IMG/VR virus record: IMGVR_UViG_2778261056_000006
Location: 1 to 42,371 of that record
DNA: 42,371 bases
Reading direction: 5' to 3' (one strand)
From: a virus
Lineage: Duplodnaviria; Heunggongvirae; Uroviricota; Caudoviricetes
Shown: in pieces, positions 5,035 to 29,145 of the stretch
How positions within the stretch are numbered: the first letter of the stretch is position 1
Layout: each line of letters begins with the position of its first letter
Notes under the pieces: generated by a model
What the model saw: only the letters and a program-made list of their open reading frames with translations
Told to the model about the DNA's origin: nothing
Database searches by the model: none
Program-made: the position numbers and the translations under genes

Positions 5035-5174
5035 GTGAGATCCTCATTTTTGGGTGTTAGAATCCCCGGACCATTGATAGCGCCCATTGGGTTAACTTTG
5101 GTTTTAATGTTGTTTCCGGTGTAACTTTGGTCGGTGAGGCCGGACATGGCGGGCCCACTTCGGTGGGCTTTCGC

Positions 5175-6261: not shown

Positions 6262-6513
6262 ATGATTGCATCAACTAAAAGTGTGTATGATGAAAAAAAA
6301 CATCATTGGGGGTGGGATGTGGAAAAGTTCTACGTGGGTTACAACGATGTATGTCAGGCGGTAGGTAGAGCGACGCTGAATCTGATATCACATGGAGACG
6401 CGCCAACTACTGAGGCGATCATTTCAATGCTTGAGTCGCTGGGGGATATTGAGAAGAACGATTTTTGGCGGCAGGTGTTCAGGTTTGCTGCTGAGGAAGT
6501 GCGAAAAGGGTAG
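6262..6513 (+). CDS. hypothetical protein (rightward gene between OL and the repressor operon)
   Basis: 83-aa ORF with ATG start, convergent with the repressor operon, ends at a shared hairpin terminator. Confidence 0.5.
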   Translation: MIASTKSVYDEKKHHWGWDVEKFYVGYNDVCQAVGRATLNLISHGDAPTTEAIISMLESLGDIEKNDFWRQVFRFAAEEVRKG

Positions 6514-6518
6514 GCAAT

Positions 6519-6550
6519 AAAAAACCCGGCGCAGTGGCCGGATTATTTAC
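6519..6550. terminator. bidirectional intrinsic terminator between convergent genes
   Basis: A6 run, stem CCGGC(6526-6530)/GCCGG(6537-6541) with 6-nt loop, then AT-rich tail; U-run available on both strands. Confidence 0.55.
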
Positions 6551-7154
6551 TATTCTGAGGTGCAGGTGCAGGTGCAGGTGCAGGTGCAGGTGCAGGTGCA
6601 GGTTGTATTATCTCGACAGGTTTTAGATGAGATTGCACTTGGGGCAACGCGAGAATTACGGCAAGCAATGCTAAAATGGCACCAACCATCCACTGAAGAG
6701 TGGCTGATGTCGTCTTTAAACCATCGATCTGCCCTTTTAATCCTTCGATTTGTCCTTTTAGGCCAGTAAACTCACCATTAACCCCTGAAATCTGAGCTTT
6801 AATTTCCGACATAGAGGTATTCATTGCAGAAAACTGCTGCGCTTGAAAGGCCCTAAATTCAGCCATTTCACGCCGCATCTCGGCGGCCACTACATCCACC
6901 TCTGCTTTGTTCTGAGCAAACTTGGCGTCAAGTTCTTCCCTTGAGATACCCACAGCATCTACCTCAGCATCTTCGCCTTTAACAATGGTTTGACTTTTAG
7001 ATAATGGATTCGTTCTACTTTTCCCCATTTTTGTTAAAATCGGGTTTTTCGGTCGAATATTTACCACATCCGCTTTTTCATGATATGCGGGCATGTGAAA
7101 TGCGTCAACTTTGACGTCAGGCGACGAGGTTTTGCGAATTGAGGCTCCATCCAC
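6543..7154 (-). CDS. membrane-anchored coiled-coil protein with C-terminal (Pro-Ala)n tail
   Basis: 203 aa; heptad-like GLKGQIEGLKGQIDGLK, one predicted TM helix (WMVGAILALLAVILAL), then PAPAPAPAPAPAPAP encoded by a hexanucleotide repeat; GTG start at 7154 (alternative ATGs at residues 21 and 43). Confidence 0.55.
   Translation of the reverse strand: MDGASIRKTSSPDVKVDAFHMPAYHEKADVVNIRPKNPILTKMGKSRTNPLSKSQTIVKGEDAEVDAVGISREELDAKFAQNKAEVDVVAAEMRREMAEFRAFQAQQFSAMNTSMSEIKAQISGVNGEFTGLKGQIEGLKGQIDGLKTTSATLQWMVGAILALLAVILALPQVQSHLKPVEIIQPAPAPAPAPAPAPAPQNSK
6559..6602. repeat. hexanucleotide microsatellite (GGTGCA)7 = minus-strand (CCTGCA)n encoding (Pro-Ala)n
   Basis: Seven perfect tandem copies read directly from sequence, inside the 3' end of the 6543-7154 CDS. 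Confidence 0.9.
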
Positions 7155-7159
7155 TTAAA

Positions 7160-7465
7160 TTAATCCTGCTTTTTAAGTTCGCGCTCAAAGGGTTCAATGA
7201 GACCCGGATCCATAACAGTAGCATTAAGTATTGCTTGAGCCATGTTTTTTGCCATAGACATTGGTAGAGTGACTGAACTAGTAGCCTCAAGAAACATATT
7301 CACCCCAGCTTCAGTATTCGTTTCATCAGGAATGTTCAAGTTGTCGACCACATGTCTACAAAAAGTAATGTGGCAATAGGCATTATCTCCGACATTCATT
7401 CCAGTAGTTATAAAAACATCCGCAAATCCAGCGTTGTAGTCTTTAGATTTTTTGATTTCTGGCAT
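7160..7465 (-). CDS. hypothetical protein
   Basis: 101-aa ORF with SD AAGGAG upstream of ATG at 7465; co-oriented with the repressor genes. Confidence 0.55.
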   Translation of the reverse strand: MPEIKKSKDYNAGFADVFITTGMNVGDNAYCHITFCRHVVDNLNIPDETNTEAGVNMFLEATSSVTLPMSMAKNMAQAILNATVMDPGLIEPFERELKKQD

Positions 7466-7505
7466 ATCTCACTACTCCTTCATTTTAAGATGAAATTGTC
7501 TTGCA

Positions 7506-7916
7506 TTATTCCATATCACCCTTAATCCGCCGCCCCATATACTTGGCGTACAGTTCATCGAGTTCTTTCAATCGTAGAGATACGATCCGCAACATGTTCT
7601 GTTGTTCTTCTTCGTTTGGGAGTTGATTATAGAGTTCCAACAGTCTCCGTTCGTCGTGTCTCAAACCGTCCTTAGCATCCACGTCCTGACCTAGAACCCA
7701 CTCAAGACTTACGCCTAGCGCATCGGCAAGTTTTATTGCTGAGCTTTTTCCTATCGCTCCTCTGACAAACCAGTTGTTGACTGATTGTGCGCTCACACCA
7801 CAGATTCTCGCTATATCCGCTTTGGATATGCGCTTCTTCTCGATGATTTCATTTAACCGCCGAACCTGCGGGTTATCTGTTTGGTGTGTGTTTTTTCTCA
7901 TGTACAAGAGTATCAC
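7506..7916 (-). CDS. XRE-family HTH regulator, paralogue of the prophage repressor
   Basis: N-terminal HTH (ISKADIARICGVSAQSVNNWF), C-terminal segment nearly identical to the adjacent repressor (LELYNQLP.EEEQQNM.RI.SLRLKELDELYAKYM.RRI.GD); ORF starts at GTG 7916, first ATG at 7901. Confidence 0.65.
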   Translation of the reverse strand: MILLYMRKNTHQTDNPQVRRLNEIIEKKRISKADIARICGVSAQSVNNWFVRGAIGKSSAIKLADALGVSLEWVLGQDVDAKDGLRHDERRLLELYNQLPNEEEQQNMLRIVSLRLKELDELYAKYMGRRIKGDME

Positions 7917-7920
7917 TTAG

Positions 7921-8304
7921 CTAATCAGCATCGCCCCTGATTCTGCGATTCATGTACTTGGCATATAGTTCATCGAGTTCCTTCAGACGCAGGGAGAAGA
8001 TCCTTATCATATTCTGCTGTTCTTCTTCCGGTAACTGTCTGTAGAGCTCCAGAATACGTTGTTCATCAGGCTTAAGGCCATCCTTCTCTCCAACATCCTC
8101 ACCAAGTAGCCAGGGGACGGATACCCCAGCAGCATCAGCAACCGCTAATGCAGAACTTTTGCTGATTCTTCCTGTTTTGAACCAACTGGAAACAGCTTGC
8201 TTACTGACGCCAGCAACCCTGGCCATCTCTGTTTTAGAGAAACCTTTCCGGTTCAGTTCTGTAAGCCTGGAGATCAGCCCAGTAGTCATTGTGTTTTCGC
8301 TCAT
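7921..8304 (-). CDS. CI-like prophage repressor (short XRE-HTH type, no S24 peptidase domain)
   Basis: HTH (FSKTEMARVAGVSKQAVSSWF) plus C-terminal oligomerisation-like domain; divergent from the Cro-like gene across an operator region; in-frame ORF extends to 8388 but that would bury the operators in coding sequence, so ATG 8304 (or 8289) is the likely start, possibly leaderless. Confidence 0.6.
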   Translation of the reverse strand: MSENTMTTGLISRLTELNRKGFSKTEMARVAGVSKQAVSSWFKTGRISKSSALAVADAAGVSVPWLLGEDVGEKDGLKPDEQRILELYRQLPEEEQQNMIRIFSLRLKELDELYAKYMNRRIRGDAD

Positions 8305-8313
8305 TTCACTAGT

Positions 8314-8330
8314 GTAAATGATTGCTTTAC
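8314..8330. promoter_or_regulatory. operator site OR-a (GTAAATGATTGCTTTAC)
   Basis: 17-bp dyad GTAAA-N5-GCTTTAC, one of three copies in the window, just upstream of the repressor start. Confidence 0.55.
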
Positions 8331-8351
8331 CAGTAGGTAGGCATTCATTGA

Positions 8352-8380
8352 TTGACTCATTGGTAAAATGATGCTTTACT
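8352..8380 (+). promoter_or_regulatory. PR-like rightward promoter overlapped by operator OR-b (GTAAAATGATGCTTTAC at 8363-8379)
   Basis: TTGACT(8352-8357)-17 bp-TTTACT(8375-8380), followed by SD AAGGAGG and ATG 8402; operator overlaps spacer and -10. Confidence 0.6.
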
Positions 8381-8401
8381 TTTTCCATCTAAGGAGGTCC
8401 T

Positions 8402-8626
8402 ATGACTGGTATTGAGAAAGCTATTCAAAAGTTTGGCACAGGTGCGGCACTCGGAAGAGCGCTTGGATTTTCAAAAATGACAATTTCCAACTGGAAGAAA
8501 ACTGGCATTCCGCCCGATCACATTCGCTCTGTTTTTGAGCTTACGGGAGTCACCCCGCATGAGTTGCGGCCTGACTTATATCCCAATCCAACCGATGCCT
8601 TACCAGTGCAAGAAACGAGGGCATAA
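8402..8626 (+). CDS. Cro-like HTH regulator (YdaS-type)
   Basis: 74 aa; HTH (AALGRALGFSKMTISNWKK) and HELRPDLYP motif typical of Rac YdaS-type Cro analogues; strong SD; divergent from repressor. Confidence 0.7.
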   Translation: MTGIEKAIQKFGTGAALGRALGFSKMTISNWKKTGIPPDHIRSVFELTGVTPHELRPDLYPNPTDALPVQETRA

Positions 8627-9168: not shown

Positions 9169-9252
9169 CCGGTTCAAAAATGGCGAAAGCCGCGGTGCTC
9201 GAACACCAACGGCTTTCAGGTGCAAAAACAGTGCGTAATTGCGGAGAACAGT

Positions 9253-10161
9253 ATGTCAAACACCGCTGAAATAATCAATTTCCCAAATAAAACCGAACAA
9301 CCGGGAGGTCGTATGGCCGACCTGTCGAACGGGTATACCAAGGTCGCTAACGAGATCCAACAGCTTAAGCCTCGCCTGAGACTGTCAGGCCGGGAATGGC
9401 AATGTTTTGAGGCGGTGATCTGGCTTACCTACGGCTGGAACAAGAAACAGGACCGCGTGACAAATACGGTTATTGCCGAGCTTACGGGCCTGAGCGATAC
9501 GCATGTATCGGACGCGCTTAAGTCTCTCGCAGAACGCAAAATCATCTTTTCACAGAAGCAGGGCATGATGAAAATCGTCGGTGTAAACACTGACCTTTCA
9601 GCATGGATTTTAGACAAACCGGAAACGGGAAGAAAATTCCCGAAAACGGGAAAATCCTTCCCGAAATCAGGAATAACCTTCCCGAAAACGGTAGACACCC
9701 AATACAAGAACAAGAACAGTATTAAAAGATCTTCGTCCGAGAATTCTGACGAATCCTCTGACGCACGTCTGAAGAAATTTTTATCAACTCATCCTGAAGC
9801 TGCGGTCTACACACCATCCGGTGCGAAGTGGGGCTCTGCTGAAGACCTCGAGACAGCTAAGTGGATTTCCTCCAGGGTGAAGCTGATTAACCCAACCTGC
9901 AAAGCCCCGGACATGACCTCCTGGTCTAACACTGTTCGCCTGATGCGCCAGATAGACAACCGGTCGCACCAGGACATCTGCGCGCTGTATGACTGGGCTA
10001 GCAAACACCACTTCTGGCAGACCAACATCCTGAGTCCCGAAAGCCTGCGTAAGCAGTGGGACAAGCTGACAATGCAGCGTAACGCCGGAGGTGAGCAGCG
10101 CGCTGTCAAGCCAGATCTGGACTTCAACAACACTGACTGGGCCTATGGGGTGATCCGATGA
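9253..10161 (+). CDS. replication initiator, lambda O-like
   Basis: N-terminus (AEIINFP...LSGREWQCFEAVIWLTYGWNKKQDRVTNTVIAELTGL) aligns with the lambda O N-terminal domain; iterons inside the gene; ATG 9253 with GGAG SD preferred over upstream GTG 9220. Confidence 0.8.
   Translation: MSNTAEIINFPNKTEQPGGRMADLSNGYTKVANEIQQLKPRLRLSGREWQCFEAVIWLTYGWNKKQDRVTNTVIAELTGLSDTHVSDALKSLAERKIIFSQKQGMMKIVGVNTDLSAWILDKPETGRKFPKTGKSFPKSGITFPKTVDTQYKNKNSIKRSSSENSDESSDARLKKFLSTHPEAAVYTPSGAKWGSAEDLETAKWISSRVKLINPTCKAPDMTSWSNTVRLMRQIDNRSHQDICALYDWASKHHFWQTNILSPESLRKQWDKLTMQRNAGGEQRAVKPDLDFNNTDWAYGVIR
9616..9696. repeat. origin iterons: four ~14-18 bp repeats (core CCCGAAAACGGGAA) at ~21-bp spacing, followed by an A/T-rich segment to ~9735
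   Basis: Repeat cores at about 9619, 9639, 9660, 9681, each with internal dyad (CCCG..CGGG); they encode the FPKTGKSFPKSGITFPKT linker of the O-like protein, as in ori-lambda. Confidence 0.7.
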
Positions 10162-18115: not shown

Positions 18116-18180
18116 AACGCATATATTTCATGTAAATCTGATATCGTCGCCATAGCTTCGTAGGTCGACAAAGAATTAAG

Positions 18181-18207
18181 AACCCGCCATCGAGCGGGTT
18201 TTTTGTC
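18181..18207 (+). terminator. intrinsic terminator downstream of Q-like gene
   Basis: CCCGC-catcga-GCGGG followed by T6. Confidence 0.65.
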
Positions 18208-27690: not shown

Positions 27691-28553
27691 ATCTACCCCA
27701 TCTGGCCCAGCGATTATTTAACACCCCGCTGGCGCTGCACCCGAGTAAAGCCGAAGTCATCATGGCATCCGTAATGGACCGATTTGGTATCAGTAAAATC
27801 GAATCTTCTCTTGCCATGGAGGATGACTGGTACGGATATGACGATAACCGGGGACGTGAATCCCGTAGTGATCCGGGTTATGACAATGTGCTGGGTGTCG
27901 CCGTCATCCCGATATGCGGAACGCTGGTGCAAAAACTGGGCAGTCTGCGTCCGTACAGTGGAATGACAGGGTATGACGGCATTCGTCAGGCGTTTCTTAC
28001 TGCGATGGAAGATCCCGACATTTCGGGCATTTGCCTGGATATCGACTCACCCGGCGGCGAGGTCGCTGGATGCTTCGATCTGGTTGATGTCATTTACGGC
28101 TCCCGGGGGAAAAAGCCTATCCATGCCATTCTGACGGAAAGCGCTTATTCCGCTGCGTATGCCATTGCCAGTGCAGCGGACCGGATTTCTGTTCCGCGCA
28201 CCGGCGGAGTGGGTTCTGTGGGTGTGATCACCATGCACCTTGACTGGACGCAGCGGATTAAAGATGACGGTCTTAAAGTTACGATCATCACCTATGGATC
28301 CCGCAAGGCTGAAGGTTCGCCGCTGAGAGAGTTGTCAGATGAAGCTCTGGCCGCCATCCAGCAGGACATTAACACCATGGGCGAATTGTTTGTGAACACT
28401 GTTGCCAGAAACCGGGGGATTAGCGCAAAGGTTATAAAAAGTACCCAGGCCGCCTGTTTTATGGCTGCTGATGGCGTTGAAATTGGACTGGCTGATGAGG
28501 TGTGTCCTCCTGACGCTGCGTTCAAAAACTTACTTGAAAAAACAGGAGCCTGA
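27687..28553 (+). CDS. head maturation protease (S49 / ClpP-fold, gpC-like)
   Basis: 288 aa; DIDSPGGEV motif; position after portal; GTG start with SD GGAGG. Confidence 0.8.
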   Translation: MNLPHLAQRLFNTPLALHPSKAEVIMASVMDRFGISKIESSLAMEDDWYGYDDNRGRESRSDPGYDNVLGVAVIPICGTLVQKLGSLRPYSGMTGYDGIRQAFLTAMEDPDISGICLDIDSPGGEVAGCFDLVDVIYGSRGKKPIHAILTESAYSAAYAIASAADRISVPRTGGVGSVGVITMHLDWTQRIKDDGLKVTIITYGSRKAEGSPLRELSDEALAAIQQDINTMGELFVNTVARNRGISAKVIKSTQAACFMAADGVEIGLADEVCPPDAAFKNLLEKTGA

Positions 28554-28554
28554 A

Positions 28555-29145
28555 ATGGCAAAGAAAAAGACGTTTAGTTTTGCTCACCTCATTGGTCTTG
28601 GCCCTTCCGCTTCTGAGGAAGAAGAGGATAAAAAAGCCAAAAAAGCGAAAGCCCGTCGCGCGGAAGAGGACGAGCGCGAAGATGATGCCGATGATGATGA
28701 GCGCGACGACGACGCGGAAGAAGACGAACGCGACGATGATGCTGAAGATGACGGCGATGATCCGGATGCGTCAGAAGATGATGATTCTGAAGACGACGGC
28801 GACGACGATCGCAAAGAGAGTAAGGCGGTAAAAAATGCACGCGCTGCTGAGCGTAAACGCTGCGCCCGTATTTTCGGCAGTAAGCATGCAGCTGCGAATC
28901 CTTCACTGGCCGCGTCACTGGCTTTCAATACCGGGATGAGTTCTGCGGCAGCAATTAATGTCCTAGCCTCTTCGGCTCCGGCCGCAGCCGCATCTCAGCC
29001 ATCCCGTAAACGCTCTCTCGATCAGCGTATGCAGGAAAGCCACCAGGTCCGGCTTAATCCGGATAGCGGACAGAAAGAGACCGGAAAGTCTGCGCTGGTA
29101 AGTAAAATGACCGGCCTCTACAACTCCACAAGAGGAGAGAAATAA
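28555..29145 (+). CDS. acidic low-complexity head protein (scaffold-like, Nu3 position)
   Basis: 197 aa from ATG 28555; long Asp/Glu-rich repeats (DDERDDDAEEDERDDDAEDD). Confidence 0.5.
   Translation: MAKKKTFSFAHLIGLGPSASEEEEDKKAKKAKARRAEEDEREDDADDDERDDDAEEDERDDDAEDDGDDPDASEDDDSEDDGDDDRKESKAVKNARAAERKRCARIFGSKHAAANPSLAASLAFNTGMSSAAAINVLASSAPAAAASQPSRKRSLDQRMQESHQVRLNPDSGQKETGKSALVSKMTGLYNSTRGEK

Follow-up and report, generated by a model that had tools for sequence, protein, structure and literature searches.

An in-frame hexanucleotide repeat of variable copy number in a predicted membrane protein gene of a tailed phage

A perfect hexanucleotide array near the 3' end of a coding sequence

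We examined a perfect hexanucleotide array in IMG/VR record IMGVR_UViG_2778261056_000006, a virus of the class Caudoviricetes; the whole stretch of 42,371 nucleotides is referred to here as the window. The array lies on the minus strand at the end of a gene for a 203-residue protein, downstream of a small partner gene and a pair of repressor genes (Table 1). The plus strand reads (GGTGCA)7 at 6559-6600, and partial units extend the array beyond these positions. Tandem Repeats Finder reported 6558-6603 with a period of 6, 7.7 copies, 100% matches, no indels, and a score of 92, and this was the sole long perfect short-period array that it found in the window. With a three-unit probe and up to 2 mismatches allowed, there were 5 overlapping matches, all of them at the array, while the number expected from 100 dinucleotide-preserving shuffles was 0.00.

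Across the array the minus strand reads CAA (CCT GCA)x7 CCT CAG AAT AGT AAA TAA, which encodes Q(PA)7PQNSK and a stop codon and forms residues 184-203 of the open reading frame (ORF), with the (PA)7 codons at 6561-6602. The protein thus ends in ...KPVEIIQ(PA)7PQNSK, and its predicted transmembrane helix stops 15 residues before the array starts. The same GTG-started coding sequence is annotated by RefSeq/PGAP in relatives from Escherichia coli. A preliminary description of the window had placed seven perfect GGTGCA copies at 6559-6602 and had read them as an in-frame (Pro-Ala)n run near the 3' end of the gene, past the predicted transmembrane helix. Both the sequence and its translation agree with this, and the coordinates were right to a base or two. 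Beyond the array, the gene shares a terminator hairpin with a convergent plus-strand ORF (6262-6513), and this hairpin is also kept 3' of homologues of the repeat-bearing gene.

Table 1. Features in and around the repeat-bearing gene
Feature	Position	Strand	Basis
GC-rich hairpin with T-runs on either side, overlapping the stop codon; bidirectional terminator	6523..6544		Hairpin/terminator scan
Coding sequence, 203 aa, GTG start; phrog_5820	6543..7154	-	Profile match, PGAP annotation of relatives
C-terminal PQNSK, ending in Lys	6546..6560	-	Family tail survey
Perfect hexanucleotide array, (Pro-Ala)7, residues 185-198, the variable part	6559..6602	-	Repeat finder, translation, copy-number survey
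PVEIIQP, residues 179-185, local form of the strand motif, directly N-terminal to the repeat	6600..6620	-	Family tail survey
Predicted transmembrane helix, residues 148-169, TTSATLQWMVGAILALLAVILA...	6648..6713	-	AlphaFold2 helix
Tandem repeat of a 21-bp unit (2.2 copies) coding for the heptads GLKGQIE/GLKGQID directly ahead of the transmembrane helix	6715..6760	-	Tandem Repeats Finder
Long alpha-helix, residues 72-125, conserved core SREELDAKLAQNKAEV...AEMRREMAEFRAFQAQQF, presumed coiled coil	6780..6941	-	Alignment, AlphaFold2
Partner gene (101 aa), separated by 5 nt from the repeat-bearing gene downstream	7160..7465	-	ORF list, synteny
Two tandem DicA-like helix-turn-helix repressor genes (7921-8388, 7506-7916)	7506..8388	-	NF007257 DicA-like below cutoff; PGAP, Pfam in relatives

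Copy number varies among nearly identical alleles

Among window-type alleles the array occurred in nine length classes, with 3, 4, 5, 6, 7, 8, 9, 11, and 14 units, all of them in frame, and the non-repeat 570 nt of the gene showed only 0-2 base differences among all compared loci. The gene was rare, being present in 3 of 5426 complete E. coli genomes, and these three RefSeq genomes had identical flanks and carried 14, 11, and 11 units. Viral contigs together with Citrobacter pasteurii CIP 55.13 had 8, 9, and 6 units. The metagenome scan added a single allele (8 units, on one contig), and a scan of species-representative genomes with the single protein found the gene in only 2 of them. Members of the same 90% protein cluster had 3, 4, or 5 units, two 8-unit arrays in this cluster were broken by one Pro-to-Arg or Pro-to-His change, and two further members (P0045 and P0046) had aberrant C-termini of the kind typical of contig breaks at repeats. 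The exact 7-unit protein of the window had no match in a collection of 15 billion sequences. The commonest allele had 5 units; it was present in at least 24 contigs from 6 prophage backgrounds, in a gene elsewhere identical to that of the window, and the same count was given by megahit k119 and NCBI assemblies as well as by Logan k=31 contigs.

A sister lineage ending in ...QNNK carried 2-8 units, and the copy number across the window-type and sister lineages thus spans 2 to 14. In a Salmonella lineage the array was short and almost fixed: 9 sequences, representing more than 100 contigs, had (AP)2, and 3 others had (AP)3. Every complete allele terminated in ...PQNSK or ...QNNK, size steps were always whole units, and no frameshifted allele was found among the alleles compared. 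Two repeat-free lineages served as controls: the HK97-type gene was nucleotide identical at 23 loci, all of 651 nt, and the second lineage had 0-5 single-nucleotide polymorphisms and a length of always 561 nt.

The nine length classes stand against only 0-2 substitutions in the other 570 nt, and mutation in the array is thus far more rapid than in the remainder of the gene. Change is also commoner in long arrays, as the 2-3-unit Salmonella arrays are nearly fixed and the repeat-free homologues are constant. Fast change by whole units that is stronger in long arrays is the signature of slippage. The instability is nevertheless moderate and not extreme, because one allele, that with 5 units, is common to many isolates and several prophage backgrounds; the array can mutate, yet isolates do not each have an allele of their own. 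Perfect tandem units beyond chance, variable copy number, and frame-preserving change by whole units were all found, as in a coding variable-number tandem repeat (VNTR). The preliminary description had proposed a slippage-prone, frame-preserving, built-in length polymorphism, which would have been contradicted by an identical copy number in all related prophages. Copy number differs among them (3-14 units, with the rest of the gene 0-2 nt different), and the proposal is borne out.

Architecture of the repeat-bearing protein

The 203-residue protein matched the phrog_5820 profile with an E value of 8.2e-46, and HK97 gp48 was a distant homologue (tblastn E=7e-16). The family profile retrieved 311 representatives among 1.84 billion proteins, and all named relatives came from Enterobacterales. 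From the N to the C terminus the protein consists of a variable disordered N terminus, a long helix, Gly-rich heptads, a transmembrane helix, and a Pro-rich tail. A hydrophobic C-terminal segment was present in 121 of 146 family representatives, and residues W155, G158, L161, A165, and P171, in or near the transmembrane helix, were conserved in the family alignment. The AlphaFold2 model contained the helix, the transmembrane helix, and disorder. The heptads just before the membrane were themselves repeated: aligned lineages had one, two, or three copies of the GLKGQIE/GLKGQID type, and the stalk therefore also changes in length by gain or loss of repeats. In some Salmonella annotations (P0007 and P0052) the start is placed no earlier than the conserved core.

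No signal peptide or lipobox was found in the 203-residue protein, and its N-terminal part is large and charged. For these reasons the protein is most likely held in the inner membrane by its C-terminal helix, with the coiled coil in the cytoplasm and the tail in the periplasm. The preliminary description had called it a surface protein, and this label is not supported, as the architecture is that of an inner-membrane anchor lacking a signal peptide, with a tail that most likely faces the periplasm.

Searches for function returned little that was specific. In Pfam the protein had only subthreshold coiled-coil matches, among them PF07798 (DUF1640/CCDC90-like), which scored 21.2 bits against a cutoff of 33.5 and thus stayed below the gathering threshold. 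However, several relatives carry precomputed PF07798 hits, and the relation to DUF1640 is therefore likely to be distant and not absent. PADLOC gave only a chance-level match to LmuB (E=0.035), and NCBIfam gave only subthreshold matches to an SH3-plus-anchor model, SMC, and IcmG. The best hit of a sequence-profile search of the PDB (E=1.4e-4) was a "conserved membrane protein," and the match was confined to the Gly-rich and transmembrane part. No description of the gene or the repeat emerged from literature searches that covered DUF1640, HK97 gp48/gp49, prophage hexanucleotide VNTRs, and the sequence of the repeat.

The tail across the family

The tail of the window protein is encoded at 6546-6647, and we surveyed the 103 family representatives that have tails of at least 12 residues. 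The median tail length was 31 residues, and the composition was rich in Pro (20%), Gln (16%), and Ala (11%), with 6.4% Lys. Two elements recurred. A hydrophobic strand motif, QP-[IVT]-[VI]-[IV]-[QYN]-[VIT]-[PQ], which matched no known motif, was present in 64 of the 103 tails, and Lys was the last residue in 67 and lay within the last 3 residues in 86, as in the window protein, which ends in K203. The segment from the strand motif to the C terminus was 2-36 residues long (median, 17), and in the repeat alleles it was 9-33 residues, with 19 in the window. The repeat thus takes the place of the family's Pro/Gln-rich spacer, the length of which is only loosely constrained, and a tail is missing altogether from some members.

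Dipeptide runs were also found at the same tail position in separate lineages (L009 4300-4390, L010 4300-4390, and protein P0015), in the forms (CCA GCA)6, an imperfect mixed-codon run APAPSPAPAPGP, and (Thr-Gln)5. Such repeats therefore arose or were kept there more than once.

As for the terminal Lys, tail-specific protease prefers apolar C termini, and by analogy a duller explanation than any contact made by this residue is that it may protect a disordered periplasmic tail from that protease.

Genomic position and partner gene

The two repressor genes head a leftward gene string and are divergent from a cro-like gene at 8402-8626. They are paralogous, with nearly identical C-terminal halves, and relatives carry either of the two alone or both together, which suggests swapping or duplication of immunity modules beside the cassette formed by the repeat-bearing gene and its partner. 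At all loci compared, the 101-residue partner was encoded directly upstream of the repeat-bearing gene family. The partner has an invariant YCxITFCRH (Cys31, Cys36, and His38) and PMSMAxNMAQAILN, is weakly similar to HK97 gp49, and matched no family in Pfam, PHROG, NCBIfam, or PADLOC. Its AlphaFold2 model (predicted local distance difference test [pLDDT] score, 64) had three strands and a helix, and a Foldseek search of the PDB gave nothing at an E value of 0.001 or below, with all TM-scores at 0.35 or lower.

In about 60 related loci the gene pair lay downstream of three unrelated repressor types and, where N was present, upstream of N. The region between repressor and N is a common site of lysogen-expressed accessory genes in lambdoid prophages, as described in a transcriptome study (PMC7067206). 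Because the repeat-bearing gene lies on the same strand directly downstream of the repressors, and the terminator scan found no minus-strand terminator between the repressor genes and position 6544, expression in lysogens is plausible by analogy with that region. A promoter-like site was noted on the minus strand inside the 5' part of the coding sequence (7108-7080; TTGACG, 17-nt spacer, TATCAT; 10/12 matches), and such sites were not above chance, with 2 found against 4.6 expected in shuffles.

The block at 6296-7909, which holds a repressor, the partner, and the repeat-bearing gene, was 98-100% identical between E. coli and Citrobacter prophages, whereas their neighboring recE and replication regions were only 82-92% identical. 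Identity that is so much higher in the cassette than in its flanks indicates that the cassette moves as a module and is a recently exchanged mosaic block.

A probable slippage-driven spacer and the alternatives

We consider it likely, with a probability of roughly 0.68, that the array is a slippage-driven in-frame VNTR that lengthens or shortens a Pro-Ala spacer in the periplasm, does not switch the gene on or off, and is tolerated within the length range of the family. Replication slippage would add or remove Pro-Ala pairs between the PVEIIQP motif and the C-terminal ...QNSK, and because the unit is two codons, its gain or loss never breaks the frame. The self-complementary TGCA core of the unit may aid slippage through weak single-strand hairpins, for which the predicted energy was -8.4 kcal/mol with 7 units and -20.5 kcal/mol with 14. 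The Pro-Ala run would form an extended, semirigid spacer that grows by about 0.6 nm per unit if extended. Changes in length are probably tolerated, as the range covered by the repeat alleles lies within that of the same segment across the family. Given this loose constraint and the existence of tailless members, we favor tolerated length drift; the polymorphism is most likely nearly neutral drift inside a permitted range. In lysogens, the repressor transcript would serve for the synthesis of this protein and its 101-residue partner, which would form a two-gene accessory cassette. The preliminary description had also suggested a contingency locus. The variable copy number stands, but an on/off switch does not, since the unit is two codons, the array sits at the 3' end of the coding sequence, and all alleles are in frame.

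Several observations weigh against parts of this reading. The recurrence of the 5-unit allele in so many contigs and backgrounds is one, and in the Logan k=31 contigs the repeat may in some cases have been collapsed during short-read assembly. The mutation rate is inferred from comparison between isolates only, and the AlphaFold2 model has low confidence (pLDDT, 59). With regard to neutrality, one lineage carries a perfect (CCA GCA)6, with a different Pro codon, one keeps Pro at each second position with mixed codons (APAPSPAPAPGP), and another has (Thr-Gln)5 at the same site (protein P0015); there may therefore be selection on the protein for an extended tail of alternating X-Pro.

These last observations lead to an adaptive explanation, which we regard as unlikely though the most credible of the alternatives. 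According to this, the spacer is tunable: copy number would determine the distance that the terminal Lys, or a partner docked on the strand motif, can span in the periplasm, and slippage would keep a range of tail lengths in lysogen populations on which selection, for example by incoming phages or colicins, could act. The locus would then be a graded and not an on/off contingency locus. Consistent with this, the array lies exactly between the two conserved tail elements, X-Pro periodicity is kept with other codons elsewhere and a (TQ)5 array occupies the same place, no alleles with fewer than 2-3 units were seen, the allele range fits the spacer range of the family, and the cassette is at a locus where lambdoid prophages carry exclusion or defense genes (PMC7067206). 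However, no phenotype is on record for any family member, the protein had no match in PADLOC, Pfam, NCBIfam, or PDB that would point to such a role, some members are tailless, a single allele prevails across prophage backgrounds, and the very loose spacer length of the family argues for tolerance and not for tuning.

Pro-Ala and X-Pro runs are common rigid linkers, as in TonB, the OmpA hinge, and lipoyl-domain linkers. The run could on this general ground, and with the 5-unit allele found again in many isolates, be taken as a rigid linker of constant length in which the perfect DNA repeat is incidental. This is highly improbable, as it is contradicted by the survey, in which otherwise identical alleles fell into nine length classes, and the exact 7-unit protein was absent from the 15 billion sequences searched. 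It is nearly as hard to attribute the variation to collapse or expansion of the repeat during sequencing or assembly. Many alleles do come from short-read drafts and metagenome assemblies, and the C-termini of P0045 and P0046 look like contig breaks, but the arrays are only 18-84 bp and thus below ordinary read length, complete genomes give 11, 11, and 14 units, differences are always whole units and never frameshifts, and the repeat-free homologues are constant in the same kinds of assemblies.

There is also very little to recommend a role at the level of DNA, whether as a protein-binding array, part of a terminator, a recombination site, or coding sequence on another strand or frame. The array is close to the bidirectional terminator, and mechanical ORFs in other frames cross it (6560-6769 on the plus strand and 6550-6693 on the minus strand). 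The Pro-Ala frame, however, continues a protein that is conserved from end to end, and related lineages keep the peptide and not the DNA unit. We rejected the other-frame ORFs, which translate to (VQ)n or (CT)n nonsense with no homologues, as well as a terminator role, as the hairpin is a separate element outside the array, and an RNA family, as Rfam had none at the array.

Relationship to known systems

Coding VNTRs with 6-bp units are used for multilocus VNTR analysis (MLVA) typing of E. coli O157 and Salmonella, and several of them lie in prophage ORFs. The present array resembles them as a perfect hexanucleotide repeat in an enterobacterial prophage ORF with whole-unit slippage differences between near-identical strains. 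It differs in that the gene carrying it is rare among complete E. coli genomes, and this locus, unit, and gene were not found in the literature searched. Coding 6-bp VNTRs are thus already a known kind, and no description of this locus was found in that literature. Similarly, the array shares with the contingency loci of Haemophilus, Neisseria, and Campylobacter a hypermutable simple repeat in the gene of an envelope-associated accessory protein, but its unit is a multiple of three, all alleles are in frame, and only protein length changes.

The distant homologue HK97 gp48 has the same layout, in which a coiled coil is followed by a C-terminal transmembrane helix and by a tail rich in Pro, Ser, and Gln that contains PIIIQVP and ends in ...APKQ. 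Its gene is located between cI and N, with a small partner gene (gp49) ahead of it. In contrast to the window gene it has no DNA repeat and no length variation in 23 identical loci. The cassette occupies the same position between repressor and N as rexA-rexB in lambda, although its proteins have no sequence relation to RexA and RexB. The DUF1640/CCDC90-like proteins (PF07798; MCUR1 family) share the order of parts, with the coiled-coil stalk ahead of a transmembrane helix at the C terminus; here, the Pro-rich extracytoplasmic tail lies outside the Pfam model and the window protein below its cutoff. According to a published description (PMC4786415), members of DUF1640 are prokaryotic and organellar membrane proteins in which a beta-layer motif opens the stalk.

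Two further likenesses are analogies only. An alternating X-Pro run, expected to be extended, stiff, and periplasmic, recalls the X-Pro spacers of envelope proteins, such as the Glu-Pro/Lys-Pro region of TonB and the Ala-Pro hinge of OmpA. However, no globular domain follows the spacer in the window protein; the anchor precedes it and 5 residues follow. Of the traits of a TonB-type periplasm-spanning protein only the X-Pro spacer is present, and we do not assign it to that class. Braun's lipoprotein, Lpp, sets envelope spacing by its length and has a C-terminal Lys linked to peptidoglycan, and a C-terminal Lys is also conserved in the present family. The window protein nevertheless departs from Lpp, as it is predicted to be anchored by an inner-membrane helix and has neither an outer-membrane lipid nor a lipobox.

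Implications of the variable array

The array offers a clean natural case of a coding repeat that evolves orders of magnitude faster than its own gene, in a prophage accessory cassette that moves among E. coli, Citrobacter, and relatives. The prophage family could be typed at high resolution by means of the array, which also carries a warning: a single gene will be divided into many alleles when proteins are clustered and annotated. Additionally, it draws attention to an uncharacterized two-gene module that many lambdoid prophages, among them HK97, carry in the position of rexAB, and the natural alleles with 2-14 Pro-Ala units are a ready-made length series for probing the role of the tail.

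More speculatively, and with odds that we consider poor, the two-gene cassette could be an uncharacterized lysogen-expressed envelope or exclusion module in which the repeat-bearing protein is a length-adjustable tether from the inner membrane to the wall, under graded contingency variation. If this were true, the strand motif would dock a periplasmic partner, the terminal Lys would contact the cell wall or be cross-linked to it in the manner of Lpp, and the Pro-Ala repeat would make the reach of the tether heritably adjustable in steps of 2 residues.

Other features of the window

Two other repeats were noted. At 9619-9691, a 21-bp unit (CCGAAAACGGGAAAAACCTTC) is present in 3.5 copies inside the replication-protein ORF at 9220-10161, and it looks like the origin iterons of a lambda-O-type replication gene. 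At 28663-28753, a 27-bp repeat with 3.4 copies encodes an Asp/Glu-rich stretch in the ORF at 28471-29145, in the virion-gene region. Two Salmonella island small RNAs scored above the Rfam gathering score on the plus strand: isrJ at 18131-18203 (58.7 bits) and isrB at 5076-5173 (38.2 bits), the latter opposite the start region of the recE-like gene.

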